A DNA stretch of 63,958 nt, counting the filler, from Folioceros fuciformis (taxonomy: Eukaryota), in NCBI GenBank assembly GCA_049999805.1. It is 6 parts of 6 records of this genome, joined end to end, with 100 filler letters (N's around TTAATTAATTAA, not from the genome) between each part and the next. Parts side by side here need not be neighbours in the genome. Positions count along the whole stretch, not along the records: positions 1 to 17,183 come from JBNGIO010006396.1; 5 more parts are not named here. One strand, 5' to 3'. Below are positions 4,934 to 41,256 of this stretch, piece by piece. Position 1 is the stretch's first letter. The number at the start of each line of letters is the position of its first letter. Below the pieces are notes generated by a model. That model did no database searches and had not been told where the DNA came from. It saw only the letters and a program-made list of their open reading frames with translations. The translations under genes were made by a program, and so were the position numbers.

Positions 4934-5183
4934 GTAAAAGAATGCATTACTGTTTATTTTCTAAGTAGCCAGCAATGAGTTAATTAAATAAATATTAAAA
5001 CTGAACGGACATGTATGAAACGTCATACATGCCATAGATTCATACGGGCGCATAGAAACGACGTGCCCTAACTATTGAACCGTCGTCATGGTTAAGGGAC
5101 GTGCTNNNNNNNNNNCGTCACCGTCACTCACAAAAGGGAGTGCAATGACGCATAACTAATTCTACTCTCTCTCATGTTTTCCT

Positions 5184-7216
5184 TCATCCAATTCTACCTA
5201 GTACGTCTTGAAAATACCTGTATTTCTGTCGTTTGCTGCTCCAACTTGTTACTGTCCCACCAAGTAGGTAAAGGTAGGTACTTATGCTCTTTCTGTCGTC
5301 GACGTTGCTGGCCAAGTCGGCGTTGCTAAACCCCTCGAGTTGTAGGGGTTGATGTTGTTGGATTTGAGAGTGATAGAGAAGTCCCATATCTAAGGTAGCC
5401 CTTAGGTACCTAAAGATTCTCTTCACTACTTTCCAATGAGCTCGAGTGGGAGCTGATAAGTACTTAGACAAGGCTCCCATTGAGAATGAAATATCCATTC
5501 TAGTGCAAACCATTAGATACATTAGACTTCCGAGCGCTGAAGAGTAAGGCAGCTCATCGCTGCTGTAAGGATTATCTTCATGTTGTTGGTCCTCTTCTTC
5601 AGTAAGCTTCAGGTTGATCTCCATAGGTGTGGAGATGGGCTTGGAGTCTATCATCTTGTACTTAGTTAGAATCTCCTGTATGTACTTGGACTGATGGATA
5701 AATAGGCTTCTAGCCTTTTTATCTCTTATAACTTGAATCCCTAGACAAAATGAGAGTTCCTAATAGGTGGTCATAAAGAATCATTCTGCTAACATGAGTA
5801 TGGTGTCCTCTAGAAGTGCCTTGGAACTGGAGCATGGAGCTTATGACCTTGTTGACTGTGAGTGGGGATACGCCTTGCAGGGACTGTACTACAGATACCC
5901 ATGATTCGGGTAAGGTAGTCAAGAGGATCGTTGCTGAGAGGTCCTCGGTCATGGAGAAGCCAGTGGCTAAGAATTTTGCTGTCCAGCTGCGGAACATCAT
6001 CACATGGTGGTCAACTTGGTCTCCCTCGGCCATTCGAAGGTTGAAATAATTCTTCAATGTATGCACAGTATGCATAATATCGCTGGCTGCGTAGATTTCA
6101 TGTAGCTGCTTCCATGCTTGGGCTGTTGTTTCAGCTCCTTCAATTTGCTATATGTTGCTATGTTGCATTAACTGCATAATTACATTTTTGGTCTGTTGGT
6201 TCTTTTCATCCCATGCGTTTTTTTCGGCTGAAGGGCAGATGAGCCTAGGTGTGGAGTGACCACTGAAAAAGTGCCGACGCCCCCAACATAAGCCCATAGT
6301 TTTCTCTCCATCAAGATGTTGGTAATTCCATACTGCGAAGTTATGTTGTTGGCCGTCGAAACGGTCTTCCTTGGACAAGGAGATCGTGGAGGTAGACATG
6401 TTGGGAGCAATTTTATTTGTGGCTACAGGCGAATAGTTGTGTGCCTGAAGATGTGTTCTATTTCTAGTCTCATTGTGAAAGAGATTAAGTATGTTTTGGT
6501 TGTCGTTGTGCTTGGTTTTGCAGGGTTGTAATCAAGGGCTGTGAGTTTCTGAAGGATATCTTGCTGGATTGACTTGATTTCCTGTTCTAAAGGTCTGCTA
6601 ATTAGGTTGTGTTGTCTACATATACTTGATATGTGTGTTGCAATTTTGTCTTCTATGTGTGAGATGGAAAGATGGAAAGATGCGATGTGATTTGGAAGTG
6701 TGAATTGTAATCATTGATTGTCATGTCGTGAACAGGAAGGATACTTGGATGTATCCCCAATCGTATTCAAGTGGGTCAAGAAAACCACGCAATAGTAGCT
6801 ATTCTCCGGTTAGCAGGAGTAGGGAGCATACGCGGAACCAGGCGTAGTGTAGCAGGTTCTCATTGGCTTCTTTTAGAGATGTTTGCTCTCTTTGGATTCT
6901 GGTGATTTCTAATTGTGCTGCCAGTTTGTTGGTCCTTGCTTGTAGACGTTGGCGTCTCTATTGGCCTGGCATTGCTCATTAGGGAAGGCAGTTCGCTTGC
7001 TCTGATACCATGTAAATGGAGCAAGAGGCGAGAGCGATGGATATTCAGGCGGTGGATTTAGCATTAGATTGAAGCGTAGAAGGTTTGCACCTTTGTGCAG
7101 AGTCAAGCGTCACAAGCGAGATGCTGTGTGGTTTTAACCGTTCCACTTATACTGATTGGTATCCTGACCTAGGATGAACTGTGCCCTGGTAGGCCCAAGT
7201 ACTATTATTATTAATA
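5184..7216 (-). mobile_element. Internally deleted Ty1/Copia element (5' LTR, PBS, gag joined to the RT C-terminus/RNaseH start)
   Basis: Met-tRNA PBS at 6999-7010 on the minus strand. Gag (KEDRFDG, LRMAEGDQVDHH, LLTTLPESW) jumps at ~5720-5800 to LFIHQSKY...YSSALGSLMYL...EGFSNAD. PR, IN and most of RT are absent. Confidence 0.88.
6999..7010 (-). promoter_or_regulatory. Primer binding site (initiator tRNA-Met), TGGTATCAGAGC
   Basis: gctctgatacca on + strand, directly next to the LTR end (...TACA on minus) at 7011. Confidence 0.92.
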
Positions 7217-7412
7217 ATCCGGTCCCGTCCGCATGTAGGTACTGAAGGCTGGGGAGTGCGGGGAGGGGATTCGAATAGTTTACATGAAAATAAAGGGTTC
7301 CGGAAAGATCCAGCCATGTGAGCCCAGTCAAGAACTGGAAGTCGCTACTGGTGCCACCCACTTTGCTATTGGACGACATGTCCAATTCTTGAAGGCTTCG
7401 AAGATAGCCCAT
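7217..7412 (-). pseudogene. Plant extracellular LRR gene fragment, truncated by the Copia LTR
   Basis: LRSLQELDMSSN, LTGLTWLDLSGT and LPSLQYLHADGT fit the LxxLxxLDLSxN consensus. Confidence 0.75.
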
Positions 7413-7603
7413 CTGGGATAGATCGAGCTCTGGTCAATCAAGGCAGGCAGGTCCAAAATCTGAATACTTAGGTTTAGGGTTTAAGGTCTAGACCTATATT
7501 AAAGAAATTTCTTTTTATTTTAGAAAAAACAGGATGAAAACCCATTAAACTTCGAAAGGGAGATAAACCATGATAGGGACAATATATCCAAATCCTCTTA
7601 AGT

Positions 7604-7948
7604 ATAATGACTACCAATAGCACCTAAAATGACTACCAATAGCACCTAAAACACCATGATAGGGATACTAGGGGTTAATCCCCTAAGCCTAATGACTACC
7701 AATAGTACCTAAAACACCATGATAGGACACTAGGAGCTAATCCCCTAAAGCCTAATGACTACCAATAGTACCTAAAACACCATGGGACACTAGGGGCTAA
7801 TCCCCTGAAGCCTAATGACTACCAATAGCACCTAAAACACTAGGGATATTGGGGCCTGACCCCCTAAAACCTAACGACTACCAATAGCACCTAAAACACC
7901 TATGGCACTTGGGCTAATCCCCTACTAATAACACCTAAAACATCATGG
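7604..7948. repeat. Tandem array of ~60-bp units (AATGACTACCAATAGCACCTAAAACACC...GGGGCTAATCCCCT), 5-6 copies
   Basis: Unit restarts at ~7606, 7628, 7692, 7754, 7814 and 7873. Confidence 0.9.
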
Positions 7949-7991
7949 TCAGGGAGGAGAAACCACTAGAGTTGCTTACGTCACTACTCTT

Positions 7992-8358
7992 TGCAACGTT
8001 GTCATCCCATACATGGCATTAGTATTGAGCAATGGAAACCCTGTACCCCTATTGCCAATGTTGTCGTCCTGTACCTATATATGGCATTAGCTAACGCTCA
8101 CTATTAAGCAATGGAAACCCTCTACCTCTATTGCCAACGTTGTCGTCCTCTATATGGCATTACCCAACACTTGCTATCGAGCAATGAAAACCCGTTGTCG
8201 AAGAAGAAGACCAAGAACTCCCCTTGGCACAAGACTTTGAAAACATGGAAAATGCCTTGCACATCATGAGCATGTAGATCTGAATAAAATGCCTTGTGCA
8301 TCATGAGCACGTAGGTCTAAATAAACTACCTTGCGCACCATGAGTACTTAGGTCTAAA
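7992..8358. repeat. Three ~70-bp degenerate units followed by ~36-bp units (AAATGCCTTGCACATCATGAGCA.GTAG.TCTGAATA)
   Basis: caacgttgtcgtcc...tggcatta...gcaatggaaaccc occurs three times; the 36-bp unit occurs three times at 8250-8358. Confidence 0.8.
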
Positions 8359-10808
8359 TGTCACGATACCAAAGGTGAGCTTAAGGTTGAGTAAGCAGCG
8401 CGAAACAATTATCCTTTAAATAAGGATTAGTTTAGAATAATGCCATTTAAATATTGGCAATTAGGAAACGCTAAACGGTAATTAGTAAACACCCAAAACC
8501 AGAGAACGTGGATTAGGGCATGTTGGCAGCTGCCCTGCTGAAACCCGTGGGCTCACACCAAGAGTGTGAGCCCAACCAAATGAGCATGACTCAAAGAGGC
8601 AAGCCCGCACTAGAATCGATGACGTCAGCCATGGCCGCCACGCTAAACCCTGGAGATGGAGATGGAGGCCGCTACTCGTCGAGGTCACACCAAAGGAGAG
8701 TGCCTGTTGCTATCTTAGAAACTCAATTGCTTTTGTTGTTCCAGCCATATTTGGGCTCAAGAGTTGTAAGGATTGATGTTCTTCGTATCTCGCTGTAGCA
8801 TCTGGTGTGATTTACCCGACTCTAAGCTGCCTGGCATATGCAGCTCGTCAATCAAGTTCTTCCAACGAAAACGTCCAGAAACCTGCATGTGAGCAGATTC
8901 CATGTCACTTCGACGACTAGCTGCGAGATCTGAGTGCAACTAGGCTTAGAGGGGGTGGTGACGCACCTACAGCAAGGCGCCATCCTCCCCGTCTTGCCAG
9001 CCGCCAGCTGCAACGTTGACTTAACAAGTTTAGGGTTACCAACCTTCCATGGCTCATAGCGCCCCCAATATAGATTGGTTGCCATTGGTTCTTATACTAT
9101 TCGACTTGCCTTGTCAAGGCAAACAGTTTGGTATGCTTTGTGTGCGATTTGGAGCCCTATGTAGGGACTAATTGCATTTGAAAGTTTCGGACAACAGGGT
9201 TTTGCTCTTGTTGCATTTGTTTTGATTTTCGATCTGGCATTGCGAGTGAGCGAGGCCACGTGCTGCAATCTTCACATGTGAGCTGGAGTTTTGCTGTGGT
9301 GTGTTCCTAAATCCTAGGGCAGACATAGGGAATTGTGGGTGTTGCAGCATGATCAGATCTAGAGCAGTTGTGCTTTCTGTTTTGTGCTGGGAAGGCATCT
9401 AGGGTTCTCTAACAAGTGTGCTTGCATGCCACCTCTCGTTGAGAGTTGGTCGTTTGTGTGTGAGTTGTTGCATGGGTTATGCAACCCGAGGAGCCAGAAG
9501 GTAGCCCATGTTATCATCTGCAATCGAGGAACGTCCCTGCTAGGGTTACACCGGAGCGTGCACAAGCCAGGAGGAGGAGAGCTGCACGTCAACGATGTTT
9601 GTCTTGGGAGGAAGAGGTCCAAGAGGACCATCAAGCTGGGCCAAGTGCTGTAGACCAGCAGCAACCAGAGATCGAGAGTTGGTCTCCGTTTGTGGGCTGG
9701 ATAGCCACAGCTGCCCCCACAGCTCCTTTGGGAAGCCAAGGAGCTGGTTTCAATTGTCCTGTATTCACAACTGCGAGGTTAGGGTCTCAAGGTCGGGCAG
9801 ACCTCTTTGAGGATTCAAATACTGGATCCATGGAGGGAGGAGCACCTTACAAGCAGGAGAGATTCTCCGGGAGACCAGGGACACAGACTTTGCGGGATTT
9901 CAGACTGCAGCTCAATGATGTCTTCAGTCATGTAAAATTCAAGCATGCTAGAGCTTACAACCATTTGTATATGTTCGAGCAGCTTTCAAGTTATCTGACA
10001 AATGAAGCTCTGGACCTTTATGAGTTGCATCAGGCTGAGCTCACAGCCATGGTGTCCACGCCTAATCCAAGGTTCCAAGAGGCTCTTCAGCTGTCTTACA
10101 ACGCCAAGCTAGCTGCAGCCATTCAGGGTCATCAGCAGGCCTTTGTTGCAACCATGGTGGCACCAACAGTGCCACCCCCAACGATCGTAACTCTTACACC
10201 AGATGAAAGGATAGCAGCCACTATGGGCATACCCGATGAGCTGCAGGTTCCTAAGTATGCCAACCCTATCGAAGAATTCATGGGCATTTTGGAGAAAGCC
10301 TTCCCATAGAAGACTCCGGAGAAAATTGCAGAGCATGCATCTTTTGCTAGGAAGAAGGGAGAAACCGTGCAGATGGCGTTCCGTAGACTGCAGAAGCTAC
10401 GTGAAGGCGCAGGGATGCTAACGGACCAAGAGGCAGCGGAGAAATTCCTAACAGCCTTGGAAGGAGACCCACTCTTTCACTTTCAGCTCATCACAACGTT
10501 GGTGGATAAATATGGTGATAGGTATACCTTGGAGCAAGTACATGAAGAAGCTAAACGCAAGAAGATTGCTTTCTCTGCATATGCTTCACGACACTCCAAG
10601 GCATTTACTCATTACCAGTCTATGTTCTCCACAAAGGGGTCTATTGCAACAGGTTCATGGGCCAAGTCACAGCAGGCCAAGCCTATCAAGGCTAGAGCAG
10701 CTACAGCTATAGTTGCTTCTTTGTGCAACTACTGTGGCAGTTCTGAGCATATGAGCCCAGCCGACAAATGCCCATCGGAAGGCTTGTACTGCACACATTG
10801 TCACACAC

Positions 10809-11520
10809 ATCCAGGCCCTGGGATCCATAGATGTGCTAATAACTAGCTAGGAATGCCAAGGGTTCTCCCAAGCAGGCGCAGGAGCGGGGTTGGAGGACTG
10901 TTGCACTGGGTTGTTGCGAGACCTGCACCAGATCTTGGCATAGGTGCAATAGGAAAATCCACAGTGTGGCTATCTCCTCAAGAACACTCCAGCGCAGCTT
11001 GACAAGAGGGACTCCGTGCGACAGGACATGGCAGTCGTGGAGCACCATCTTGGTGCTCCCTTTCTTTTGGATGCTATCCAGGTGGGTAGTTATGCGCACC
11101 GTCTCGCAACTACTGGACCAACCTCATCCCTAATTTAGTCTTGGCACTCGTGCTTCGCAACACGAAGCGGGATCCCACCTTGCAGCTGCAGGATGTGTTG
11201 GATGCAGATCATGAACCCAGGATGTGGTTGCTAGTGGGCGACCACCCTGGCATCCAACCAACACACCTGGTCAGCCTCGCAAAACATTGCCTACCCTGGT
11301 GAGCTTTCCTGGCTCCTTTGCCTATCGCGGCAACGGCACTGGATTGCTATACAACACCACCACAAAGCAATGGGAAGAGCCCTCCATTGAGGAGCGTGAG
11401 CAGATCATGGGCTTTCCAGCACATGCCACAGCAACACCGCAGGTTACAGTCTCTCAGCGCTGTGCTGGTATCGGTTGAGCTATGTACTTGCACGCCATCA
11501 CTTGGCTTGTGAGTTTATGC
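10809..11520 (+). pseudogene. DNMT3/DRM-like C5-cytosine DNA methyltransferase domain (motifs IV-X) inside the Gypsy pol, disrupted
   Basis: Manual translation. Frame +3: IDVLITS*ECQGFSQAGAGAGLED (motif IV), GYLLKN (VI), LGAPFLLDAIQVGSYAHRL. After a frameshift: RNYWTNL (VIII)...LQLQDVLD. After a second frameshift: EREQIMGFPAHAT (IX), SQRCAGIG*AM (X). The last frame continues into RT. Confidence 0.88.
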
Positions 11521-14500
11521 TTGGCTTTCCAACTGCTTACCAGAGGCACCCTTGCAGGCCTTGTAGCCATGGCTTGTCCAGCAGATGCAGTGCACCTACC
11601 TTTCCCTGGCTATCCTTGCCTACCTTTTAGGCTCGATGCAAGGGGGGGGGAGTATGCTGCTTGGCACCACTCTGTTTTTTCTGCATCGACCTTTTAGGTG
11701 GATGTGAGGCAAGAGCCATCAACCAAGGTGCCACTCACTGCTGAAATGTTCAACTGGCACATTGGACCACAGCTCGCTGATGAACAACAGAGTCAGATTC
11801 AAGCATTGATTCTCAAGTACAGTGATTGCTTCGCATTCTCCATGAAGGAGTTGAAACGCTGCAATGTCACAACCTTCAGGATCAACCTCACAAGCCCGGA
11901 GCCCATATATCACAGAAGGTATCGGCTGAGTCAATCTAAGTGGGAGATGGTGGATGCCAGGTGCAAGAAATTATGTGAGGCAGGGCTAATCAGACCTTAC
12001 AGTTCTGATTACGCTGCTGCGACTGTCATGCCGCCCAAGAAGGATAGCCATAGCTTATGGACGAAGAAGAGAATGTGTGGCGATTATCGTCCTATCAACG
12101 CCGTGACAGCCCAGGACAGGTACCTTATGCCTACACCGAAGGAGATCTTTGACAACATCGGCAGATCTGTCTACTTCTCCGTATTGGATCTAAGGCAAGG
12201 GTTCAACCAAGTGCCAGTGGCACCGGAGGACATAAAAAGGATAGCCTTCACGGATCACAGCAACTGTGGGAGTGGCTCATGATGCCGTTCAGCTTCAAGA
12301 ATGCTCCATTCACCTTCCAGAGGGTTATGGACATAGATTTGGCCAGGTTAGCCAACCTATTGTGCTACATAGATGACATCCTTGTGCACAGTGTGGTCTT
12401 TGAGTCGCATTTGGAACACTTGGAGGACCTTTCCCAGCACCTAAGGAAGGCTCATCTCAAGTGCCATCCAGCCAAATGTGAATTTGGTATGGATACAGTT
12501 GCATATTTAGGGCACAGGGTGGTTCCCAACGGCGTGATGCCACACTCAAATAAAGTGCAGGCCATTCTGCAGGTCAAGGAGCCTACTAACATCTTTGCCT
12601 TGCGAGCATTCCTTGGCCTTTGCAGTTATTATCGGATATATATCCAGAACTTCAGCCGTATTGCCAAGCCTCTCAACGACCTGCTCAGGAAGGATGTGGT
12701 ATGGACTTGGAATGAGGCTATGTAGGAGGCGTTTGATACCCTGAAATCCAGGTTGACCTCTGCACTTGTGATGGCCAGACCTGATTTCAAGCAGCCATTT
12801 GTGCTACACACAGACTGGAGCAGCTTAGGCCTTAGGGCAATTTTGGCTCAGCATGATGAAGAAGGGAATGAGAGAGTGATAGCCTATGCATCCTGTAGCA
12901 ACAACAAGGCGGAGGCCAATTACAGCAATTATGAAGGTGAATGCCTCGTGGCTGTTTGGGCCGTTTGCCACTTCCAACCTTATCTCTATGGACAGGCATT
13001 CAGGCTGGTGACGGACCACCAACCCCTCAATTGGCTCATGGCCAACACAAAGCTCAGCGGCAAGCTAGCTCGATGGGCCATGATTCTTCAGGATTATGAT
13101 TTCCAAGTGGTTTACAAACCAGGTCTAAAGCATCAGAATGCAGACACTCTCTCCAGGAATCCAGACAGCAACTGTCAGGACATCACCGAGGCAAGGCAGG
13201 ATTATGAGCCTTATGAACCATTCAAGGTCGCTGCTCTGGTGGCTATGGTGTGTGTCGACAGTGGCAGCACAGCTATACCCACCCGACTGGCTAAGGACAT
13301 TTGGGAGGATCCTTACACACTGCAGTATCTGCAAACAGGATAGCTAGATGCGACGTTGCCACCAACCACAGCTAAACAGGTCAAGCATCGTGCTGTCACA
13401 TATTACTGGCCGGATGGTTATGTTATTAGGAAGCTGGCACATGGCGTTGCACGCTTGGTGCCGCCACCAGTTGACAAAGCTGCACTAATTAGTAAGGTGC
13501 ACAATGATATGGGTCATTTTGGCGTCAAACGCACTTACAGCCTGCTAGCCCCTCATTTTTGTTGGCAATGGGATGCATGGTCATGTGCGTGACTGGGTTG
13601 CCTGCTGCGAGCCATGCGACAGGGCGAAGACTTCCTTCACCATCCGGCACCCGGAGCTACATCCTTTGCCTATCATGGGCCTCTTTTTCAAATGGTCATG
13701 TGACCTGATTGGGGAGCTGCCATGCATTGCACGTGGGAATGTGTACATGCTTGTCATGATGGAGCATTTCTCCAAGTGGGTGGAGGCTGTCGCGCTGCTT
13801 GACAAGATGTCCAGGAGCACCTCTCAAGCATTCTTGCAGGATGTACTCAGCCATTTCGGCAGCTGTGCAGAATGTTTAACTGACCAGGGGTCAGAATTCA
13901 GGGGTGAATTCCAAGATCTATAAGACGCAGCATTGATAGATCATCGCAGGACAAGCAGAGACCATCCCCAAGCTGATGGTCTTATAGAGCGAATGGTCCA
14001 GACACTCAAGAAGGGCTTGAGGAAGCTCTGTCTACAGATGCCTAAGCTTGAGTGGGATCTCGCCTTGCCCTACATCACAATGAGATACCGAATGAGTAAG
14101 CATGCCTCTTTGGCACACTTCTCACCGTATTTCCTACTTTTTGGCCGTGAGCCAATGCCAACTAGCTCCATCGCCAAGCAACTGTAGTAGGTGGTGGACT
14201 TAGATAGTCCAGTTGTATGGGCCAAAGTCATTGGGGAGAGGGCTACGATGTTTAGGCAGGTCATGCCCATGGCTATGGCACATTTGCACATCGCACAGCA
14301 CAAGGACACTCTTAGGTATGCCTATACCAGGAGCAGAAGTTTCAGGCCCAAACTCAAGAAGTTCCAATTTGGGGACTTTGTGTATTTGCAGCAACAGACT
14401 GGTGATACACTAGACTCCAGCACTAGCTGCCATGTGCTGTGGATCAGGGAAGATAGACATAATGGCGTGCTGCTACTACAGGGGCAAATGGCAGGACTAT

Positions 14501-14594
14501 TACAGATCACACCAAGAATTGTGCCCCCTGCCACCTACCCAACTTGGACCCCACCATTGTCACAGCCAATTGGGTCCCCCCGGAGGATTACCCT

Positions 14595-14729
14595 TGCCAG
14601 GTGTGTTGCAGGGTAGATGATGCAGAGCTCATACTGCTCTGTGATGGATGCAATGGCGGATTCCGTTTGTTTTGCTTGGATTCGCCGCTGACTGAGGTAC
14701 TTGAACAGTTATGGTATTGCCCCCAGTGT
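14595..14729 (+). other. PHD zinc finger at the C-terminus of the Gypsy integrase (degenerate copy)
   Basis: CQVCCRVDDAELILLCDGCNGGFRLFCLDSPLTEVLEQLWYCPQC has C4-H-C3 PHD spacing with the His replaced by Arg. Confidence 0.9.
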
Positions 14730-15049
14730 GCTGTTCCTACAGTTAGTTGAGGGCATGGGTACCCGGCGTGGATAAGCCCTTTCTTTTTGCTAGCTATTCT
14801 CGTCAGCTTGGGGGGGGGGGGGAGATGGGGGTTCCCCCGGGCTTCTTGTCGTGCAAGGCACACTGCAGACGGTCAAGCTGGTGATAAGTGTGGCAACCTC
14901 CAGCCGCGAGCATCAGCTGAATAACACAACACATACCAAAGAAAGTGGTAAGAAGGTTAGCATCACGCAAGGTGTTGAGCACTGGGAAAATGTGGAACCC
15001 CCATCTCGACATGGAATCTGCTCACACGCAGGTTTCTGGACGTTGGGGG

Positions 15050-15285
15050 TTACTCAACACTTGCTATCGAGCAATGGAAGCCCGTTGTCGAAGAAGAAGA
15101 CCAAGAACTCCCCTTGGCACAAGACTTTGAAAACTTGGAAAATGCCTTGCACATCATGCGCATGTAGATCTAAATAAAATGCCTTGTGCATCATGAGCAC
15201 GTAGGTCTGAATAAACTACCTTGCACACCATGAGTATGTAGGTCTGAATAAAATGCCTTGCACATCATGAGTACGTAGGTCTGAA
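15050..15285 (+). repeat. Second copy of the 8160-8358 repeat, including 36-bp tandem units
   Basis: Near-identical ttac.caacacttgctatcgagcaat...gaagaagaagaccaagaactccccttggcacaagactttg... followed by 36-bp units. Confidence 0.9.
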
Positions 15286-16515
15286 CGGCAAAGGGGATAA
15301 AGGTGTGTCCAACTTGTAGAAGGATGTACTTGTCAACAAAGTGAGTCCCACCCAAACCCAAAACCCAAAACCCTAAACCCTAAACCCTAAACAAGTGTGT
15401 ACTAAAGAGGCATAATGCTTTGGTAAAGATTGGAACAAAGGAGACTCAAAACACATATATATGTAATTGTGGAGATGTCAATCCTTCTAATCTACATATA
15501 TTTAATTTAATTAAAATATAAATTAATTCATCTTTAATCTATAATATATCAAGATCAACAAGTAGGGCAAATTTTGAGATTATGAATCCTACCCACAAAG
15601 CTTTCAAGGAGAAGATACTTAGCTAGAAAAACTAAGGACATTCCAAGTAACTAGAAAAATTAGCTTTAACATTGACACTAGAAATCATGACATAAACCAT
15701 GGGGGGGTTAGTATATAATGACATAGTGTGTGGTCTTCGTTCAATAGCCTAATACATTCACACATCACCCATGGCTTTGAAGGCTATCTGTTACAACTAA
15801 TGAAGGCTAAGGCTCGGCAAATAATTTTTGGTTATCTCCCTAGACCCTAAATCAAACCCTTAACCCAATAGGAAATCTTAGGGTTTAGGGTTTTTATATC
15901 TCTTATTCTCACAAACCTCAAATAGATAATACACTGAATTTGTTAAAGCTGGTTATTCCATGCAAGATATAGGAAAAGTTCTAACAAAATGTACAATTTT
16001 TGGTTTTCTAGAGCTCTCCCACTTGCATCGTACACTTGAAACTCCACTCCGCAGTCGGATGACCTTTTGGGATGGGAAGGACGAGCATGATTTCTTGGAG
16101 ATGGAGTTTGGAGCGTCCACAGCTATCGGGCTGTTTGTTTCCTCTGTCACATTGGTCTGTCGTGGCTTTCATGAGAAATACAGGAGCCAGTGGCCAGCTG
16201 GTGTGGCCAGCTTCCAGCCTTGTCGGTCGGTTCACCATGCAGACTACGCTCGACCGCGCACGTGCCCATTTTCACGACCCGAAACTCCTAAAGATAGCAA
16301 CGGTAACAGCTCGATCCTTGACCTGCCAAGCAGCAAGGAAATGAATCAGGCCGCCGCGAGGCCACCGATTTGTCGACAGTCCCGTTCTTGGAGCAGATCG
16401 GAGCGTCGCGGAGTGTGCTCTTTGCGCAATTCTGCTGTTTCGCACGGATTCTGGGGAGGAATTCGACTTCAGCCTGTCAGCGAGGGGGTCAGGAATCGAG
16501 AGGCGGATCGGGGAG

Positions 16516-17114
16516 ATGGTGAGGTTGTTGTGGAGGCTCGGGAAGGCGAGGGTGGGAGCATTCGAGCACGCAGGTGCAGGAGGCGGAGGCGGGAAGTGTG
16601 AGGAATCGGATGCTCACGCGCACGGTCTAGGTGAGGCCGGCTTGGTGTGGAATGGCTGGAATCCGTTCTTGCTTTTCTATGAGGGGATGGAGGAGGAGAA
16701 GGTTGTGGCGATCCGGGATTTGCTGACTGCGGCTGGAGATGGCACGTTCGGGGAGGAGAACATCATCGGATGGGGCAGGTTCAGCACGGTTTACAAGGCG
16801 CTTCTGGCGGATGGAACCGCGGTTGCTTTGAAACGGCTGAATCTTGGATCGTGGACGCTGTCGAGAGTGGGATTTTTGAAGCGGCTGCGGATCTTGATGA
16901 GCGTGGAGCATCCGAATCTGGTTCGGATCTTAGGTTGCGATGGGAGGAGGAAGGTGATGGTGTTGGATTACATGCCTAACTCTTGCCTTGCGAAGATACT
17001 GTGTTCGGGAGATTCGGCGGTGAAGAAGGCACGGGTGCTGGCGTGGGACAGGCGGCATAAGATTGCGCTCGGCGTGGCCTTAGGGCTGCAACATCTGCAC
17101 TGCGCGTACTCCCC
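16516..17114 (+). CDS. RLK/Pelle-family protein kinase, N-terminal part (truncated by gap/scaffold end)
   Basis: FGEENIIGWGRFSTVYKA, VALKRL, EHPNLVRILG, VLDYMPN and WDRRHKIALGVALGLQHLH correspond to subdomains I-VIa. The start codon is uncertain. Confidence 0.8.
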
Positions 17115-17183: not shown

Positions 17184-17283
17184 NNNNNNNNNNNNNNNNN
17201 NNNNNNNNNNNNNNNNNNNNNNNNNNNTTAATTAATTAANNNNNNNNNNNNNNNNNNNNNNNNNNNNNNNNNNNNNNNNNNNN
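17184..17283. other. Artificial scaffold linker N44-TTAATTAATTAA-N44 (also 23909-24008, 30033-30132, 34750-34849, 61393-61492)
   Basis: Identical 100-nt spacer containing an all-frame stop cassette, present five times. Confidence 0.97.
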
Positions 17284-17311
17284 TGGTCTTGATGAGGTAC
17301 TCCTCCCTGAT

Positions 17312-20300
17312 GTGGCTTACCTGCAAGACTCCAACGAAATCTGGACACAACTACTGCAAACGTACGAGGCAAAGAACATACTTACGCAGTGTGCAATTCG
17401 TGGAGAACTGTTTTCAATGAGACTTAAAGAAGGCGAGAAGGTGGGACCTTTCGTCGTGAAGTTTCGGCAGTTGCGGGCCCAGCTCCTGAACTTAGGATCC
17501 CAGTTTCCTGAGTTGGATGCTGTTGCCCAACTCCTCACCTGCTTACCACCCAGCTACCAGACCTTCGTCTCCGGCTTTGGAGCTTCCATTCGCGCGGCAG
17601 ACAAGGCTGTAGCTGCTGGCAAGGCACCTCAAATCAGTCTTGTTGACGTGATTGGTGCTCTCCTGCAAGAGGAACAAAGCAGGCTTCATTCCACACCACA
17701 GGGTGGAAAAACGAAAACAGATAAGGTTCTTTATACTAAAGGGAACAAATTGCAGAAAGGACAGAAAGGTCGATCAGCTACTGGTGACTCACCTTCTGGT
17801 CCTTCCTCAAGCAAGCGGCCTGGATCATGCAACTGGTGTGGCATCCAGGGCCATTGGGAGAGAGACTGTAGAAAGAAGAAAGCCGGCGAAGCACGCAAGG
17901 TCGAGAAGCCCAAGCAGGCTGAGGCTCACGCTGTCGCTAAGCCTTCCTCAACTTCAAACAAACCTCCAGTCGTTATGACAGTTTGTTTTTCGTCTTCTGC
18001 AGGTCCTCCCTCCCCCCATAGTTGGTACTTAGACTCTGGAGCCACATCCCACATCTGTAATGACAGAGGTTTACTTAGTAACTACAGACCTTCCCGCACA
18101 TCAGATAAAGTCCTGTTGGGTGATGAACTTACCCGTACTGGTCTGCATATTGCTGGGTCTGGTACATGTCGTTTTCGGTTGCACGATGGGTCCATCCTCC
18201 ATCTTGACAACGTCCTGCATGTACCCCTCATGGCCAAGCACCTACTTTCAGTCAGTCAATTATTGTCTTCCAGAGAGTACGACCTCCTCTTCACTTCTCA
18301 CAGCTGTGCACTTAAGAAGCGAGGGGGGGATGGACAGGTCGTAGCTAAAGGACATCTCTTTCATGACTTGTACCAGCTTGATCTCACATGCATCCCTCCT
18401 GAGTCTGTGCATGCTACTCACTTATCACAGGCTGCCCAAGCCAGCTTATGGCATGCCAGATTAGGTCATGCTAATAGAGACAAGCTGTTAAAGATGTCTA
18501 ATTTGAACTGCTATAGAGAGCCCTTGCCGAAATGCTTTAAAGACTTACCTCTTTGTGATGCCTGCGTCATAGCCAAGCAAAAGGAACTTCCTTTTCCTAA
18601 ATCAGTGGCTCATCGAGCATCACAAGTATTAGAGTTAGTACATGCAGACATTTCAGGCAAGATTCATGTTCCCTCTCTAGGCGGTGCCCTATACTATCTT
18701 ACCATCACTGATGACTTTAGTCGCTACTCCTGGACTTACCCTATCCGGTTGAAGTCCGATACCTTTGAGGTATTTAAGGAATGGTTGGTGATGGCGGAGA
18801 GACAGACAGGGTGTTTGCTACAACAGCTGCGTACAGACAACGGGGGCGAATTTACTCATTCCCACTTCAACCAGTTTCTGCTGGACAGAGGTGTTGTACG
18901 GCAGCTAATCGTCCCTTATACTCAGCAGCACAACGGTGTTGCTGAACGTCGCAACCAGACCCTGCTGGGCATGACACGCAGCGTGTTAGAATGGGCAGGT
19001 TTAAGCAAAGCATACTGGGCTGAGGCAGTGGTCACAGCGACTTATCTGCTAAACAGGCTTCTCACAAGTGCTGTGGACGGAAAGACTCCATTTGAGGTGA
19101 TATGGCGTCGGAAGCCTAGTCTCCTGCATCTAAGGGTATTCGGCTCCCCAGCGTATGCTTACATCCCTGAAGAACGGCGGCTGAAGTTAGAAGACCGAGC
19201 ACGCCCACTTGTCTTCGTGGGATATGGAGAAGAAGCCAAAGCTTATAAGTTAATTGATCCACTTACCTTGACAGCAGTTTTTGCCAGAAGTGTGACTTTC
19301 AAGGAGCTTGTATGTCCCGCAAAGCCCTACTTCGATCACCTGTCCGACAACAGTGAAAGAGTTACTCATGTAGACTTGACAGACATGGAAGATTCATCTG
19401 AATTCCCACAAGATGACTTACCAGGCGTTGTGTTCATTGAGGCTCCTGAAGCTGTGCACAACCCTGGAGAGGGTCTCGCACATCCACAGGACGATGAGGC
19501 TGCACCAGATATTCAGGCTCCTGATCCAGCAGCTCATGGAGCACTCCCTGCCGACTTGACTCATGAAGATCAGTTTCCTGATGCAAATGATTTTCGGGAA
19601 CAGCCTGCAGCAGAGGACGAGGCTGCACATGACTTAGCTGCGGAAGATGTTTCTGTTCAATCTACAGATTCTGACTTACATGAGGATTTACCTGGTTCTG
19701 TTTCAGATGATGATGATCTAGCTGAAGTCCAGCCTGAAGCTATCCAGCCTGAAGAGCGTCGTTATCCTCAGCGTACCAGGAATCCACCTGTCCAGTGGAC
19801 AGAACCTCCATATGCTTCCATTGATTTTCGTCGCCCTCGAGCTGGAGTAGCCCTGCCAACACCCCAGTCTTCTGTCAGCAGTATCAAGCCTGAACCTCGA
19901 TCCTACCGCGAAGCTATTACCGGAGCTGACAAGGCCCATTGGATTCCCTCGATCAAGGACGAATACGACTCCTTAATCAAAAACAATACATGGGAATTAT
20001 GCTCCTTACCTAAAGGCCGGAAAGTTGTCAGCTGCAAGTGGGTCTTCAAGCACAAGTTGAATGCCCAGGGTGAGATTGCTCGCTACAAATCGAGGCTCGT
20101 GGCCAGGGGTTTCACCCAGATTCCAGGGATTGATTTTACAGAGACCTTCAGTCCCGTTGTGAAGACCCAGTCTATCCGTATGATTCTTGCTCTCGCTGCA
20201 GCAAACGCTTGGGACCTCCAGCAGATGGATGTCTGCACAACATTTTTATACGGTGAGCTGGAAGAGGACATATACATGTCCCAGCCTGAGGGTTTTATAG

Positions 20301-21472
20301 ACCCTGAGCACCCGGATTGGGTCTGCCATCTGAAGAAGACTATCTACGGGTTAAAGCAATCGGCACGAGAATGGTACAAAACAATTGACAAGTACCTTCG
20401 ATCCATCGGCTTCATTCAAAACCCTGGTGATGCAAACGTGTATTTTTACAGCAAGGCTGGTACCCTCGTGATTCTTGCCTTGTACGTCGACGATGCCATC
20501 CTCGCATCAAACGACCAAGGCTTGTTATCATGGGTTAAAGACATGCTTCGCCAGAAATTTGATATGAAAGATATTGGGGCACTTACCTTCGTTCTTGGTG
20601 TCCAACTTGTTCGTGACTTTGATGCTGGTTCCCTTATGCTTCATCAAGCGAAATACATCTCTGAGACTCTGCACCGTTTTCATCTGGACACTGCCAAACC
20701 TGTGTCCACTCCTGGTGTTGCAGGCCTGAAGTTGTCTCATGATCAGTGTCCACAGACAGATGAGGAGCGCCAGGCCATGGCTCAGGTTCCTTATCGCCAT
20801 GCTGTGGGCTGTCTCAACTACCTCAGTTGCTGGACAAGGCCAGACATTCAGTTTGCTGTGAGCTCTGTCTCCCAGTTTCTCGATAATCCTGGCCCTGCAC
20901 ACTGGAGTGCAGTTAAACGGGTCCTCAGATACCTAAAAGGTACTCAGCAATATGGCCTCTGCTTCAGGGGGCGAGGGCAAGCACCTACCTTGTGTGGGTA
21001 CGCTGATGCCGACTGGGCCACCGACCCAGATGCCAGAAGAAGCATCTCGGCATATTGCTTCACTTTGAATTCCACAGCTGTTCACTGGAGCTCGAAGAAG
21101 CAATCCTCAGTGGCCTTGTCCTCCACCGAAGCTGAATACAAAGCGCTGACGGAGAGCGCCAAAGAGGCTGTATGGGAACGCAGTTTTCTGTCAGGCCTTG
21201 GGTATCCACAGTCACAGCCTACTCCTATTTACTGTGACAACATGTCCACCATCGCGCTGACTGCCAACCCTCGTTTTCATGCGCGTACAAAGCACATTGA
21301 AGTGCATCATCATTTTATCCGACATTCTGTGGAACAGCGCCATGTGAGAATCCAGCATGTGTCGACAGACCTAAACACTGCCGACATTTTGACGAAGTAC
21401 CTTCCTGCTAGCAAGCACTATCAACACATGGAGGCTATGGGCGTACAGGCCTGCCCTGACTCCCAGACCTAA
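17312..21472 (+). CDS. Copia element A gag-pol polyprotein (uninterrupted; its N-terminus is at 23078 because the scaffold is permuted)
   Basis: 1386-aa ORF with CNWCGIQGHWERDC, WYLDSGAT, HADISG, RTDNGGEF, KSRLVARG, YVDD, YADADW and HARTKHIE. Confidence 0.97.
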   Translation: MAYLQDSNEIWTQLLQTYEAKNILTQCAIRGELFSMRLKEGEKVGPFVVKFRQLRAQLLNLGSQFPELDAVAQLLTCLPPSYQTFVSGFGASIRAADKAVAAGKAPQISLVDVIGALLQEEQSRLHSTPQGGKTKTDKVLYTKGNKLQKGQKGRSATGDSPSGPSSSKRPGSCNWCGIQGHWERDCRKKKAGEARKVEKPKQAEAHAVAKPSSTSNKPPVVMTVCFSSSAGPPSPHSWYLDSGATSHICNDRGLLSNYRPSRTSDKVLLGDELTRTGLHIAGSGTCRFRLHDGSILHLDNVLHVPLMAKHLLSVSQLLSSREYDLLFTSHSCALKKRGGDGQVVAKGHLFHDLYQLDLTCIPPESVHATHLSQAAQASLWHARLGHANRDKLLKMSNLNCYREPLPKCFKDLPLCDACVIAKQKELPFPKSVAHRASQVLELVHADISGKIHVPSLGGALYYLTITDDFSRYSWTYPIRLKSDTFEVFKEWLVMAERQTGCLLQQLRTDNGGEFTHSHFNQFLLDRGVVRQLIVPYTQQHNGVAERRNQTLLGMTRSVLEWAGLSKAYWAEAVVTATYLLNRLLTSAVDGKTPFEVIWRRKPSLLHLRVFGSPAYAYIPEERRLKLEDRARPLVFVGYGEEAKAYKLIDPLTLTAVFARSVTFKELVCPAKPYFDHLSDNSERVTHVDLTDMEDSSEFPQDDLPGVVFIEAPEAVHNPGEGLAHPQDDEAAPDIQAPDPAAHGALPADLTHEDQFPDANDFREQPAAEDEAAHDLAAEDVSVQSTDSDLHEDLPGSVSDDDDLAEVQPEAIQPEERRYPQRTRNPPVQWTEPPYASIDFRRPRAGVALPTPQSSVSSIKPEPRSYREAITGADKAHWIPSIKDEYDSLIKNNTWELCSLPKGRKVVSCKWVFKHKLNAQGEIARYKSRLVARGFTQIPGIDFTETFSPVVKTQSIRMILALAAANAWDLQQMDVCTTFLYGELEEDIYMSQPEGFIDPEHPDWVCHLKKTIYGLKQSAREWYKTIDKYLRSIGFIQNPGDANVYFYSKAGTLVILALYVDDAILASNDQGLLSWVKDMLRQKFDMKDIGALTFVLGVQLVRDFDAGSLMLHQAKYISETLHRFHLDTAKPVSTPGVAGLKLSHDQCPQTDEERQAMAQVPYRHAVGCLNYLSCWTRPDIQFAVSSVSQFLDNPGPAHWSAVKRVLRYLKGTQQYGLCFRGRGQAPTLCGYADADWATDPDARRSISAYCFTLNSTAVHWSSKKQSSVALSSTEAEYKALTESAKEAVWERSFLSGLGYPQSQPTPIYCDNMSTIALTANPRFHARTKHIEVHHHFIRHSVEQRHVRIQHVSTDLNTADILTKYLPASKHYQHMEAMGVQACPDSQT

Positions 21473-21523
21473 TCTCTATGGACTTCTGACCAGCTGCAGA
21501 TTATGGTGGATGAAGCAACAAGC

Positions 21524-21880
21524 TCACACATAATCGCATACTGCAGCTGCCAGAGTACTTAGCTGTTTTGTGGCAGCGGGCTTGCAGCGGCACACTTTGA
21601 ATTGCGCGCGTAACTCCTCTTCAGGATGCAGTGTTGGGATGGCGTCCAGCTTCTTTACAGTCAGCCAGAGTTGCAGCTGCCACTCCCAGCCAGCAATTTG
21701 CCATCGCTGTTCAGTTGTAAACGCGCTATATCTTGGGTGCTGGCCAGACATCTGTGCCTCCGCTCTTCGTGTCCTCCCTCGTTTGTTCCTTCTTTGCTCA
21801 TCGCGCCAGTGCTGGTATAAGAGGTAAACCGCAATTACGAAGGAGCACAGTGCGAGGCTTTGGGCTATGGAGCTTGGCAT
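21524..21880 (-). CDS. Antisense ORF in the 3' region of Copia A; small protein with an N-terminal hydrophobic helix
   Basis: 118 aa with an ATG start. LALCSFVIAVYLLY is followed by basic RRNKRGRTRR and FTTEQRW..WE.QLQ.WL. Homologue at 29420-29604. Confidence 0.55.
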   Translation of the reverse strand: MPSSIAQSLALCSFVIAVYLLYQHWRDEQRRNKRGRTRRAEAQMSGQHPRYSAFTTEQRWQIAGWEWQLQLWLTVKKLDAIPTLHPEEELRAQFKVCRCKPAATKQLSTLAAAVCDYV

Positions 21881-21929
21881 CGTCGCGCCGCCACACTTTA
21901 CTTCCCAGCGTGCTCCGTTTACGGGGGCG

Positions 21930-22084
21930 TGTTGGAGGAGAACCCCGTTGGGTTCTCCAATAAACGAAGCAGCTTATCCGTTATTTGAGATTATTTATGT
22001 GATAACTAGTTGAATAGTCGTGACCCTTGATAGTTTTTGCTATATAAGACATTTTGTATTCATAAAAAATTGCTTTTATCAACA
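21930..22084 (+). repeat. LTR of Copia A (155 bp, TGTTG...CAACA), preceded by a PPT and followed by a PBS
   Basis: PPT acgggggcg at 21921-21929; inverted termini; TGGTATCAGAGC at 22085-22096. Confidence 0.93.
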
Positions 22085-22228
22085 TGGTATCAGAGCACTG
22101 ATACATGATTTGCTTCTACTGTCTACATTAATGTATTTTGGCTATGGTAGATTCATATGCAAATCAAAGACTTCCGCTGCGCGGATCTGGCTGTCGCTAT
22201 GCAGCAGATCATGTCGCTCTAAGTAAAG

Positions 22229-22759
22229 ATGACTCGAAGGGGGCGTTCTTGCTGTGAGCGATCGTCCCCGCTATCCTGCAATCAACCCACAATAAGGCAT
22301 CAGGATCAGTCTTCCAGGACTATACTGTATACATTGCTTTTGTCCCGAACTCCAACCAGGGTGCACATATTGCGACATCCCGAAGTTCGAGATTTTTGTG
22401 AGGACGATTTGCGGGACACATTCAGATCTCGGGCTACTCACCTGCCAGAGATAGTTGGAGCCTACCGAGTGCTGAGCGAAAGGTTGAACACCACAGAATC
22501 AACCCTGCTTACTGTGATTTCTCGACAGGGCGAGGTGCACACCGCGCGCCATCAAGAACTTTCAGCCGCGGTTGACCTTATTCTGCGCAAGCAGACAACA
22601 CTGATTGAGGATGTTAGAAAATTGTATGACCTTGTGACTGAATTGCAAAGGAAATCAGCGCACGACTTGGGCGCGAATTCTACCTCAACAGATCTGCTTA
22701 GATCGCTGGCCCCTGCTCGCGAGAAGCCCAGATTTCAAGCGTCGTCCTCAGCGCGGTAG
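22229..22759 (+). CDS. Extra ORF upstream of gag in Copia A (176 aa, predicted coiled coil)
   Basis: Starts MTRRG. Start, stop and internal motifs are conserved with 24546-25028. Confidence 0.65.
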   Translation: MTRRGRSCCERSSPLSCNQPTIRHQDQSSRTILYTLLLSRTPTRVHILRHPEVRDFCEDDLRDTFRSRATHLPEIVGAYRVLSERLNTTESTLLTVISRQGEVHTARHQELSAAVDLILRKQTTLIEDVRKLYDLVTELQRKSAHDLGANSTSTDLLRSLAPAREKPRFQASSSAR

Positions 22760-23077
22760 GGCGCGCCTGGGGTGCTTCGTGTCCGCTGTGTTTTCTGGCG
22801 GGAGGCGTCTTCTTTGGCATCTGCCCGCAGTAAGACTCCACAGGACGCGACCCTGCAAGCGGCCATGCTGAAAATACCACGTCAGCCATCTACTTACCTC
22901 AACCGTCAACAGACGTCTCAGGAGATGTTCTGTGCCATCTGACCTCTCCGCGAACCTCTTCTCTGCTCCACCTCTCCGCCTCCTGTAGCATTGCGAGACA
23001 TATTACGAGAAAAATTGCCTGGTGCTCTCGGCCTGATCACCCTTGCGCGCTTGATAATTTTTCTGCAATACGTCTGC

Positions 23078-23908
23078 ATGGCTACAGGAGGGGTTAGTGG
23101 AGGTGGAGGTAGCGCAGGAGGTACAGGAGGCGCAGGAGGAGGAGTGGTCGCATTACCTCTTCCACCTGTGCCTGTTATCCCCGCTCCGTCTTTCTCAATG
23201 GAATTTAAGGAGAAAGACCGCTTTAATGGCACGAAGTTTCATGGATGGCGTGTTCGCATGACAGCTGCCCTGCAGGCACGGCACGTGTGGGGCATTGTTA
23301 GTGGTTCTATTCCTAAACCAGCATCTACTGCTCCAGCAGATGAACTTGAGAAGTGGGATAACCTGAATCATGTAGCTCGTGCGGTCTTGATTAGTGGTCT
23401 TGATGAGGTACTCCTCCCTGATGTGGCTTACCTGCAAGACTCCAACGAAATCTGGACACAACTACTGCAAACGTACGAGGCAAAGAACATACTTACGCAG
23501 TGTGCAATTCGTGGAGAACTGTTTTCAATGAGACTTAAAGAAGGCGAGAAGGTGGGACCTTTCGTCGTGAAGTTTCGGCAGTTGCGGGCCCAGCTCCTGA
23601 ACTTAGGATCCCAGTTTCCTGAGTTGGATGCTGTTGCCCAACTCCTCACCTGCTTACCACCCAGCTACCAGACCTTCGTCTCCGGCTTTGGAGCTTCCAT
23701 TCGCGCGGCAGACAAGGCTGTAGCTGCTGGCAAGGCACCTCAAATCAGTCTTGTTGACGTGATTGGTGCTCTCCTGCAAGAGGAACAAAGCAGGCTTCAT
23801 TCCACACCACAGGGTGGAAAAACGAAAACAGATAAGGTTCTTTATACTAAAGGGAACAAATTGCAGAAAGGACAGAAAGGTCGATCAGCTACTGGTGACT
23901 CACCTTCT
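23078..23908 (+). CDS. Copia A gag N-terminal part (Gly-rich start), truncated by the scaffold end
   Basis: MATGGVSGGGG...MEFKEKDRFNGTKFHGW. 23395-23908 is identical to 17284-17797. Confidence 0.93.
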
Positions 23909-34749: not shown

Positions 34750-35137
34750 NNNNNNNNNNNNNNNNNNNNNNNNNNNNNNNNNNNNNNNNNNNNTTAATTA
34801 ATTAANNNNNNNNNNNNNNNNNNNNNNNNNNNNNNNNNNNNNNNNNNNNGTCCATCCCCACCACCGCTCCACGAGTCCCCAGTTCCTATGGTTCGTCTCG
34901 AGCGCCGCGGTCCATCCCGGGCGCCGCGGTCCATCCCGCCTCTGGAACTACTGTAAACCCTAATCACTAAACACACATTTCAATTTTCCGCACATCCTAG
35001 TTTTTCTCTTACTTCAATTTCTTCGTGTGGTAGGCCCCATGGGGTGACGTGTACGTGCTTTTAACTTCAATAACAAAAAGGTAATGGGGGTCTCTTACTC
35101 TTTGGGCATGAGCCATAGGCCCCTTCCTTCAGTTTTC

Positions 35138-38083: not shown

Positions 38084-38223
38084 AGTTAAGGGACTGCCGG
38101 AGGTGCATAGACAAGACTAGGCCACGCACAAACGCTTCCCCTCTGCTACGGTGAGCTTGGCAGCCGCTGTCTTCGCATTCCTCGATGCTCATGCTCATGC
38201 TGGATCTGCAGCTGTTAAAAGTC

Positions 38224-38917
38224 TGGCAGCGACAAAGTGTCTTCGCCTCTGCTCCCCGTGTTAGTGCGTCTGTCACCCTCGTCCCACCTCCTCCCGGTCT
38301 GTCTGTCTGTCTGTCCCAAGTTCAGCCGAGGCAGGATACCCGTTGTGTTGCTTAATTGCTGGTAAGCCGGTGAAATTTTGGAAAACCCTCCCTGCCCGCC
38401 GAGTGCCTATCACCAGGAGATCTTTCAATCCTAGGTACCTAGTCTCCATTGCCCCTCAAGCCCCACGAGTCTCTTTGCCTCAATTTCAGGGCTATTCTCT
38501 TCAGACCTAGGCTATGCCATGGTGTACCGATACGGGCATGAAGAAACTTCATGTTGCTTCATGGCAGCGACAAAGTGTCTTCGCCTCTGCTCCCCGTGTT
38601 ATTGCGTCTGTCACCCTCGTCCCACCTTCTCCTCCCAGTCTGTTTGTCTGTCTTTCTGTCTGTCTCCGTCCCAAGTTCAGCAGAGGCAGGATACCCGTTG
38701 TGTTTCTTACCTGCTGGTAAGCCGGTGAAATTTTGGAAAACCCTCCCTGCCCACCGTGTGCCTATTACCAGGAGATCTCTCAGTCCTGGGTACCTAATCT
38801 CTCTTGCCCCTCATGCCCCACGAGTCTCTTTGCCTCAATCTGACCTGTACTCTTCAGACCTAGGCTGTGCCATGGTGAACCGATGCGGGCATGAAGAAAC
38901 TTGTTCGTTCATGTTGC
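38224..38917. repeat. Tandem duplication of a ~340-bp unit upstream of the PPR gene
   Basis: 38224-38561 and 38562-38917 both start tggcagcgacaaagtgtcttcgcc and end catgaagaaact..catgttgct. Confidence 0.9.
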
Positions 38918-41100: not shown

Positions 41101-41256
41101 TCAGTTCACCGATGATGAAGATATTGACAGCCAGCCTCCAACACCAGCTGTAACTGCGGCAGGGGAAGATCCAGCATCTCTCCTGCCTCGACTACGGAGT
41201 TCAAAGATTGGTGTTGTCAAAGGCGTGGAAAGGGGAACTGTCTGGGCATACAGGTT

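Follow-up and report, generated by a model that had tools for sequence, protein, structure and literature searches.

Remains of a DNMT3-type cytosine methyltransferase domain in a probable Ty3/gypsy-type retrotransposon of an apparent land-plant host

In the green lineage, methyltransferase-carrying retrotransposons have been described for one charophyte alga, Klebsormidium nitens, where a Gypsy element has DNMT3 domains within its Pol, whose key residues are conserved and whose Ka/Ks is below 0.2 (PMC5890265, in its available part). The same text gives a DIRS-like repeat layout for these elements and reports that retrotransposon DNMTs methylate CG de novo. A 2026 preprint, in the portion accessible, gives 'streptophytes (Gypsy-DNMT3)' as the known case. 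Here, a 63,958-nt stretch of DNA labelled Folioceros fuciformis (assembly GCA_049999805.1) was analysed; it is called the window, and all coordinates are positions in this 64-kb window. An earlier note, made from the sequence alone, had claimed that a Gypsy retrotransposon at 10809-11520 carries its own DNMT3/DRM-like cytosine methyltransferase. The element, which lies in the N-free block 5116-17114, was identified with good confidence as a dead, internally deleted Ty3/gypsy-type long terminal repeat (LTR) retrotransposon, whose intact family polyprotein would include a DNMT3-type methyltransferase.

Such an element bears on an opinion paper which states, in its available text, that DNA-methylase-encoding transposons are absent from land plants and which builds its argument on that loss (PMC6338049). 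A search of the literature, outside of which lay supplements that may hold more, turned up no published element of this kind for land plants or Zygnematophyceae. The available parts of PMC9033089, PMC11982613, PMC10952607 and PMC6453930 contained nothing on the question.

Identity and type of the methyltransferase remains

The stretch 10806-11540 is, as read from its sequence, a decayed cytosine-5 (C5) methyltransferase domain that runs from just before motif IV to motif X and is spread over three frames of the plus strand. The first part (10806-11104, frame 3) holds motif IV, motif VI and the first half of motif VIII (GSYAHR). From 10809 it reads IQALGSIDVLITS, a stop codon (10848-10850) and ECQGFSQAG...GLED, with the Cys codon at 10854-10856; after the motif IV stop it continues as ECQGFSQAGAGAGLED ... 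YLLKNTPAQ ... PFLLDAIQVGSYAHR, the last of which ends at about 11104. Motif VI is YLLKN (LLKNT), with a Lys codon at 10980-10982 in place of the Glu of ENV. The second part (11105-11221, frame 2) resumes at 11105 with RNYWTNL, the second half of motif VIII, and includes the start of the variable region. The third part (11222-11540, frame 1) contains the variable region (LPTLVS...), motif IX (EREQIMGF) and motif X (GIG-stop-AM). Frame 1 from about 11215 was read as ...EREQIMGFPAHAT...QRCAGIG-stop-AM, with the stop at 11476-11478, and the same stretch includes ...LPTLVSFPGSFAY...EREQIMGFPAHATA...QRCAGIG-stop-AMYLH. The order of the motifs in the window (IV, VI, VIII, IX, X) is linear. Four in-frame stops (10848, 10941, 10950 and 11476) fall where relatives have ordinary residues. 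The frame changes at 11104/5 and 11221/2 are single-letter losses relative to other copies, which carry one more letter at each site, and tblastn of homologs also switches frame at 11105. The coordinates, motif readings and motif order of the earlier note all held when the three frames were read again, and its two 1-nt frameshifts correspond to these two sites.

Single pieces of the domain matched no Pfam family at E<=1, because the separate pieces are too short and too decayed for curated libraries, and a PDB search gave chance matches alone. When the stops were masked as X, the first piece matched PF00145 with an E value of 0.0018 and 18.2 bits, below the Pfam cut-off of 22. An exhaustive phmmer search with 10809-11137 as query, run against 1.84 billion representatives, returned 200 proteins at E<=1e-3, 15 of them at <=1e-10, and the best match to this first piece had an E value of 6.9e-23 and 52% identity. 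Pfam scans of these matches found PF00145 at E<=0.001 in 9 of 10 proteins, 8 of them above the 22-bit cut-off and up to 46.1 bits, and again in 5 of 5 further ones, so that 14 of 15 in total reached E<=0.001 and 13 of 15 the cut-off. PF00145 was also present in all 30 Atlas look-alikes of a near relative, P0034.

A profile was built from the domain parts of 42 phmmer matches, with the window sequence excluded, and scored against the 1987 stop-to-stop pieces of at least 20 residues in the six frames of the window. Of these, four matched: 10851-10940 (E 7.5e-08, profile positions 126-154), 10953-11135 (E 2.8e-15, positions 162-212), 11090-11299 (E 1.7e-08, positions 212-253) and 11215-11475 (E 5.8e-29, positions 251-336). 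They are collinear with the profile, and the best of the other 1983 pieces had an E value of 1.1. The pieces 11090-11299 and 11215-11475 have little or no overlap with the query 10809-11137 and therefore provide a largely independent test. The whole stretch, read through with X at the breaks, scored 275 bits over profile positions 110-355 of 375. A chance origin of the methyltransferase match is excluded. The C5-methyltransferase match for which the earlier note had proposed a hidden Markov model search was thus obtained through the profile of 42 relatives and through PF00145 in the relatives, but not with the first piece alone, which stayed short of the cut-off. Three other searches were less productive. 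A word-index search with the third piece plus linker found none at E<=0.01 among proteins of 624-2000 residues, and one with the family alignment among long proteins found 6 proteins only. An Atlas search with the third piece gave mostly unnamed clusters and one weak PF00145 lead at rank 10.

For typing, an alignment of 18 relatives was turned into a profile and compared with solved structures. The best match was DNMT3A (1.1e-26, 97 bits), followed by DNMT3C and 3B (about 1e-22), tobacco DRM (3e-12), Arabidopsis DRM2 (7e-09), M.HhaI (9e-09) and DNMT2 (2e-03). The motif order of the relatives is linear, from I to X, and the domain is therefore of the DNMT3 type and not a rearranged DRM. On these grounds the window domain is assigned to the DNMT3-type C5 methyltransferases, which narrows the DNMT3/DRM-like label given before. 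The likeness to DNMT3A that had been pointed out in motif VIII and in motifs IX-X was seen in the alignment for both, the latter as EMERVFGFPVHYT...RQRLLGRSW. Neither PWWP nor ADD reader domains were found by Pfam in the polyproteins scanned, which have a PHD finger after the integrase instead.

The catalytic residues are well kept in the family. The catalytic Cys, the Gln next to it, the Glu of ENV and both Arg of motif VIII (RxR) are each present in 42 of 42 relatives, and the glycine of motif I, which appears there as ELFGG, in 40 of 42. At the position before the catalytic Cys, 23 of these relatives have Glu, 18 have Pro and 1 has another Cys, and the window likewise has Glu (Glu-Cys-Gln, 10851-10856) and not the usual Pro. 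The replacement of this Pro in 23 of the relatives and in the window would suit a family whose domain is a pseudo-enzyme, or a DNA-binding module that retained the methyltransferase fold and has no working methylase. This is considered unlikely, since the conservation of the other residues is hard to explain without catalysis, the Pro is kept in 18 relatives, and activity has been demonstrated for other retrotransposon DNMTs (PMC5890265, available text). More probably, the DNMT3-type domains of intact members would be catalytically competent.

Place in pol, element layout and other copies

The 150 phmmer matches listed were compared with the window by tblastn. The same proteins aligned over the three frames of the domain and then over reverse transcriptase (RT), RNase H, integrase and PHD finger. 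The window domain was hit by 143 of the 150, and 7 gave no match. In 11 proteins RT comes after the domain, which is the order of the window; in 109 the domain is the only part matched, and in 23 it lies after RT/RNase H or directly before the integrase. According to Pfam, P0022 (2188 residues) contains zf-CCHC, Asp protease, DNA_methylase (46.1 bits), RVT_1, RNase H and integrase, and P0013 has DNA_methylase, RT, RNase H and integrase. The other order (RT, RNase H, DNA_methylase, integrase, PHD) was found in P0043, P0065 and P0092. A quick maximum-likelihood analysis of the domain, with 43 rows and 251 columns, gave a tree divided into two sets with a Shimodaira-Hasegawa-like approximate likelihood ratio (SH-aLRT) support of 96; the window grouped with every row in which the domain precedes RT, and the rows with the other order were all in the other set. 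The last frame of the domain, frame 1, is also the frame of the RT open reading frame (ORF) 11698-12282, from which the earlier note had argued that the domain was part of pol, and the relatives agree with this. Judged from frame, layout and tree, the methyltransferase domain belongs to pol.

Names were looked up for 30 of the 150 listed matches, and 11 of them were named to organism: 10 gene models of Closterium sp. NIES-53/-54/-65 and 1 Scenedesmus 'pol'. All named matches with the domain order of the window were from Closterium, and no Klebsormidium sequence was among the 30 looked up. Identity to Closterium was 35-39% in the methyltransferase domain and about 45% in RT. Two Closterium models, P0060 and P0289, join the methylase domain with a copia-type RT. 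A reading of these as copia-DNMT elements was rejected, since by look they are gene models across nested elements, in the case of P0289 because copia-type and gypsy-type RT occur together, the gypsy RT and RNase H lying further on.

The other parts of the element were located on the same strand. A gag-like reading frame (9464-10805) is made of two ORFs, 9464-10309 and 10310-10846, which each run from stop to stop and share a frame, and it includes a zinc-knuckle-like CX2CX4HX6C at 10724-10771. A Pfam scan of the window gag pieces found no family; the stretch 10181-10828 aligned with residues 11-197 of the Closterium polyprotein P0010 (25% identity, E 7e-07), inside which P0010 has a Pfam zf-CCHC at residues 169-185. 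Downstream of the methyltransferase, RT was found at 11698-12521 (RVT_1, E 1.7e-05 and 1.6e-17 on two pieces, with a frame change near 12246-12258), RNase H at 12726-13097 (RT_RNaseH, E 2.7e-35), and the zinc-binding domain and catalytic core of integrase at 13464-13914 (Integrase_H2C2, E 5e-07; rve, E 4.5e-12; frame change near 13566). The order RVT_1, RT_RNaseH, Integrase_H2C2, rve is that of Ty3/gypsy elements in Pfam terms. After the integrase Pfam found no chromodomain; in that place is a PHD finger at 14595-14729 (PF00628, E 3.5e-08, 33.8 bits against a cut-off of 24; frame change near 14488). This finger sits where chromoviruses have the chromodomain, and P0065, P0092 and P0043 have the same one. 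Its presence in relatives of the other order means that the backbone combines a DNA methylase and a probable reader of histones. The intact family would thus have one polyprotein consisting of gag with its zinc knuckle, protease, DNMT3-type cytosine-5 DNA methyltransferase, RT, RNase H, integrase and PHD finger.

Two direct repeats, taken as LTR cores, flank these parts at 8160-8359 (5') and 15050-15249 (3'). They are 94.5% identical over 200 nt, and the insertion is therefore not recent. The true ends of the LTRs are blurred because of 37-nt and 79-nt tandem units in and before the 5' repeat. Tandem arrays of about 60-nt and 79-nt units were observed at 7574-7900 and 8023-8193, upstream of or overlapping the 5' repeat. 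A 37-nt inverted repeat (97%) was also present. Its first arm, at 8870-8906, is about 510 nt inward from the 5' repeat, and its second, at 15008-15044, comes immediately ahead of the 3' repeat. Directly after the 3' repeat, at 15350-15385, is a short series of CCCTAAA units, the telomere repeat of plants.

The profile match starts at position 110 of 375, and motifs I-III are therefore absent from this copy. The deletion breakpoint was placed at 10805/10806, close to the position of about 10808 at which the earlier note had placed the apparent deletion of motifs I-III and of the protease. The relatives have from about 330 (P0010) to 500 (P0022) residues between the zinc knuckle and the breakpoint, protease included, and these residues are without a match in the window. 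In particular, no window match was found to the protease part of P0022, which was lost with the deletion. Motif I (FxGxG), which binds S-adenosylmethionine, is among the deleted parts, and the Glu of ENV that has become Lys at 10980-10982 is kept in 42 of 42 relatives. A stop at 11695-11697, particular to this copy, parts the methyltransferase from the RT ORF, and more frame changes follow downstream near 12246, 13566 and 14488. From the deletion, the four stops, the two frame changes in the domain and the Lys in ENV, the window copy is read as dead, as had been claimed.

Other copies were sought in sequencing data. Two sequencing runs with one species label contain 0.55 and 0.40 of the sampled words of 10400-12300. 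Contigs of four runs (X1-X4) were aligned to 9400-12400 at a likeness of at least 80%; these runs may come from the same sample as the window assembly and would thus not be independent of the window. The numbers of contigs were 396 (X1), 330 (X2), 207 (X3) and 0 (X4), and those of X1 were distributed over the likeness classes 99% and more, 95-99%, 90-95% and below 90% as 77, 113, 136 and 70. In three runs, contigs reached all 30 bins of 9400-12400, those of the domain no less than those of gag and RT. One more letter than in the window was found at 11104/5 in 2 contigs each of X1 and X2, and at 11221/2 in 9 contigs of X1 and 3 of X2. Every contig over 11476 and every one over 11694/11695 differs from the window, and some copies have sense codons at 11476 and 11695. 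Before 10806, 2 contigs of X1 and 3 of X2 diverge from the window, and 30 letters there read PQDVRYIQQG in the domain frame, which matches the conserved PQDV stretch of the relatives just upstream of motif IV. The bin coverage, the extra letters and this upstream sequence indicate that some copies lack the deletion and that part of the breaks, at least, is likewise not common to all. The element belongs to a many-copy family of which the domain is a regular part.

These data also bear on whether one copy merely captured a fragment of a host DNMT3, or landed in a host DNMT3 pseudogene. The absence of motifs I-III and the broken state of the domain are what a captured fragment might show. Such an event is nevertheless extremely improbable, since many diverged contigs cover the domain just as they cover gag and RT, other copies run on past the breakpoint in the upstream direction, the place and frame of the domain are the same in relatives from other organisms, and the domain groups with those of retrotransposons of the same layout. 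The one-off capture that the earlier note had weighed against its own claim, with sister elements lacking the segment, is contradicted by these contigs and by the layout shared among relatives. In run X3, 120 places with C>T and 63 with G>A were counted on 9400-12400, compared with 19-26 for the other transitions, and X1 and X2 were without this skew. X3 may be a bisulfite or enzymatic conversion library, and its contigs cannot give methylation levels.

Host, origin and possible working of the family

The host was judged from a gene in the window. An open PPR-E-DYW frame of 992 codons lies on the minus strand at 35138-38116, in the N-free block 34850-44246. Its product is likely an organelle RNA-editing factor, and a second PPR fragment, about 77% identical at the DNA level, lies nearby at 40010-40723, also on the minus strand. 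Among the best 120 homologs of the frame, all those named to organism are land plants (Diphasiastrum, Adiantum, Ceratopteris, Cryptomeria, Ceratodon, Calypogeia). Rows with names beginning 'Gb_' were also among the homologs, and these we take to be Ginkgo. The earlier note had also placed the element in a land plant, and this gene, with its named homologs from land plants alone, agrees. According to the available part of a 2026 survey, the PLS subfamily, including DYW, is confined to land plants within Archaeplastida (PMC13386178). With high confidence, then, the gene content of the window points to a land plant as host. If the host is a land plant, the family would extend the known algal Gypsy-DNMT3 elements into embryophytes.

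A copia element was observed elsewhere in the window, at 17284-23908. It has an open frame of 1410 codons (17240-21472) between 514-nt stretches at 17284-17797 and 23395-23908 that are 100% identical, which suggests a very young insertion. Paired runs of 44 N stand at the ends of this and of other copia elements.

How the family came into the plant was considered in two ways. The first is that the window copy represents a living land-plant Ty3/gypsy lineage with a working DNMT3-type methylase and a PHD reader, inherited from a streptophyte-algal ancestor; this is put forward tentatively. The second, horizontal transfer from a green alga in place of vertical persistence since that ancestor, is possible but doubtful. 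Transfer would account for the algal origin of all 11 organism-named matches among the 30 looked up, with no land plant among them, and for a best match of just 52% identity in 1.84 billion representatives, so that no close land-plant kin is on record there. It would also be in line with the statement, in the available text of PMC6338049, that land plants lack such transposons. However, most phmmer matches come from assemblies that may include plants. The identity to Closterium, 35-39% in the domain and about 45% in RT, suits a long separation and not a recent transfer, and copies that span from 99% to less than 90% likeness indicate a family that was already resident some time ago. Closterium belongs to the Zygnematophyceae, the sister group of land plants, which fits descent.

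Intact members of the family would translate the methyltransferase as part of Pol. The enzyme would use S-adenosylmethionine and may methylate cytosines de novo on the new DNA of the element or at the insertion site, by analogy with the retrotransposon DNMTs in the available part of PMC5890265. The PHD finger, in the place of the chromovirus chromodomain, might read histone tails and so steer integration. The methylation could serve self-restraint, mimicry of host-marked DNA, or another role.

Several points weigh against the main reading of the element. No single piece of the window reaches the Pfam cut-off, so the domain call rests on transitive homology, and the Glu for Pro before the catalytic Cys, found in the window and in 23 of 42 relatives, is unusual for motif IV. 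Neither a primer-binding site nor a target-site duplication was recognised by eye at the ends of the element, and the terminal repeats, at about 200 nt, are short. No RNA support came from run X4, a presumed RNA run, which gave no contig on 9400-12400. The summed depth at both frameshift sites partly shares the state of the window, so broken copies may be common, and the contigs are short, with no complete open frame in any of them. Furthermore, the element block (5116-17114) and the PPR-DYW block (34850-44246) are separated by several N runs, and no repeat link between them was found; it is therefore the scaffold that ties the element to a land plant, with the shared species label of the runs in addition. 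These N runs would also allow the element to be an algal or other contaminant that was joined to plant sequence by scaffolding. Contamination is very unlikely, since runs of one species label yield hundreds of contigs of the family that differ widely in likeness, which is what a resident repeat family should give, and since the element block also carries a protein kinase fragment and, by eye, a leucine-rich-repeat-like frame.

Retrotransposons with a methyltransferase turn the main silencing mark of the host to the element's own use. Together with Closterium relatives of the same layout, a family of many copies in a land-plant genome widens the known range of Gypsy-DNMT3 elements and runs against the statement in the available text of PMC6338049 that land plants lack such transposons. 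The family also offers a system for studying a transposon-borne DNMT3 beside the DRM, CMT and DNMT3 pathways of the plant itself. If the lineage is living and inherited, transposons could supply part of the de novo methylation in such plants, which would contradict the published view that DNA methylases encoded by transposons disappeared on land.

Comparison with described and related systems

The closest described system is KnitGypsy-Dnmt3 of K. nitens, and the likeness is by published description in the available text, not by direct sequence comparison. Both this element and the window family have a non-rearranged DNMT3-type domain in the Gypsy Pol ORF and a streptophyte host, and both occur in several copies per genome with key residues conserved in the family. 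KnitGypsy-Dnmt3 has a charophyte host and DIRS-like repeats, whereas the window element has an apparent land-plant host, two 200-nt direct repeats, one 37-nt inverted pair, and is a dead copy.

The polyprotein models of Closterium sp. NIES-53/-54/-65 (P0013, P0010, P0037), for which no descriptive paper was found in the literature, share the order of the window: zinc knuckle, methyltransferase, RT, RNase H and integrase. They fall on the side of the window in the domain tree, but their domain identity is just 35-39%, and in P0013 no PHD match was seen, unlike the window element. Chlorophyte and environmental proteins, namely the 'pol' P0065 of Scenedesmus sp. PABB004 and also P0092 and P0043, have a homologous methyltransferase and, as in the window, a homologous PHD finger after the integrase. 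However, their methyltransferase lies between RNase H and integrase and not before RT, and they are on the other branch of the domain tree.

Among solved structures, the catalytic domain of animal DNMT3A/3B is the best match (1.1e-26) and has the motif VIII and IX-X signatures in common with the window family. Unlike the animal enzymes, the window family is without adjoining PWWP/ADD, lies within a retrotransposon polyprotein and has Glu for Pro in many members. Plant DRM is a C5 methyltransferase related to DNMT3, but its motifs are rearranged, whereas those of the window family are linear and the match to DRM is far weaker (3e-12 to 7e-09).

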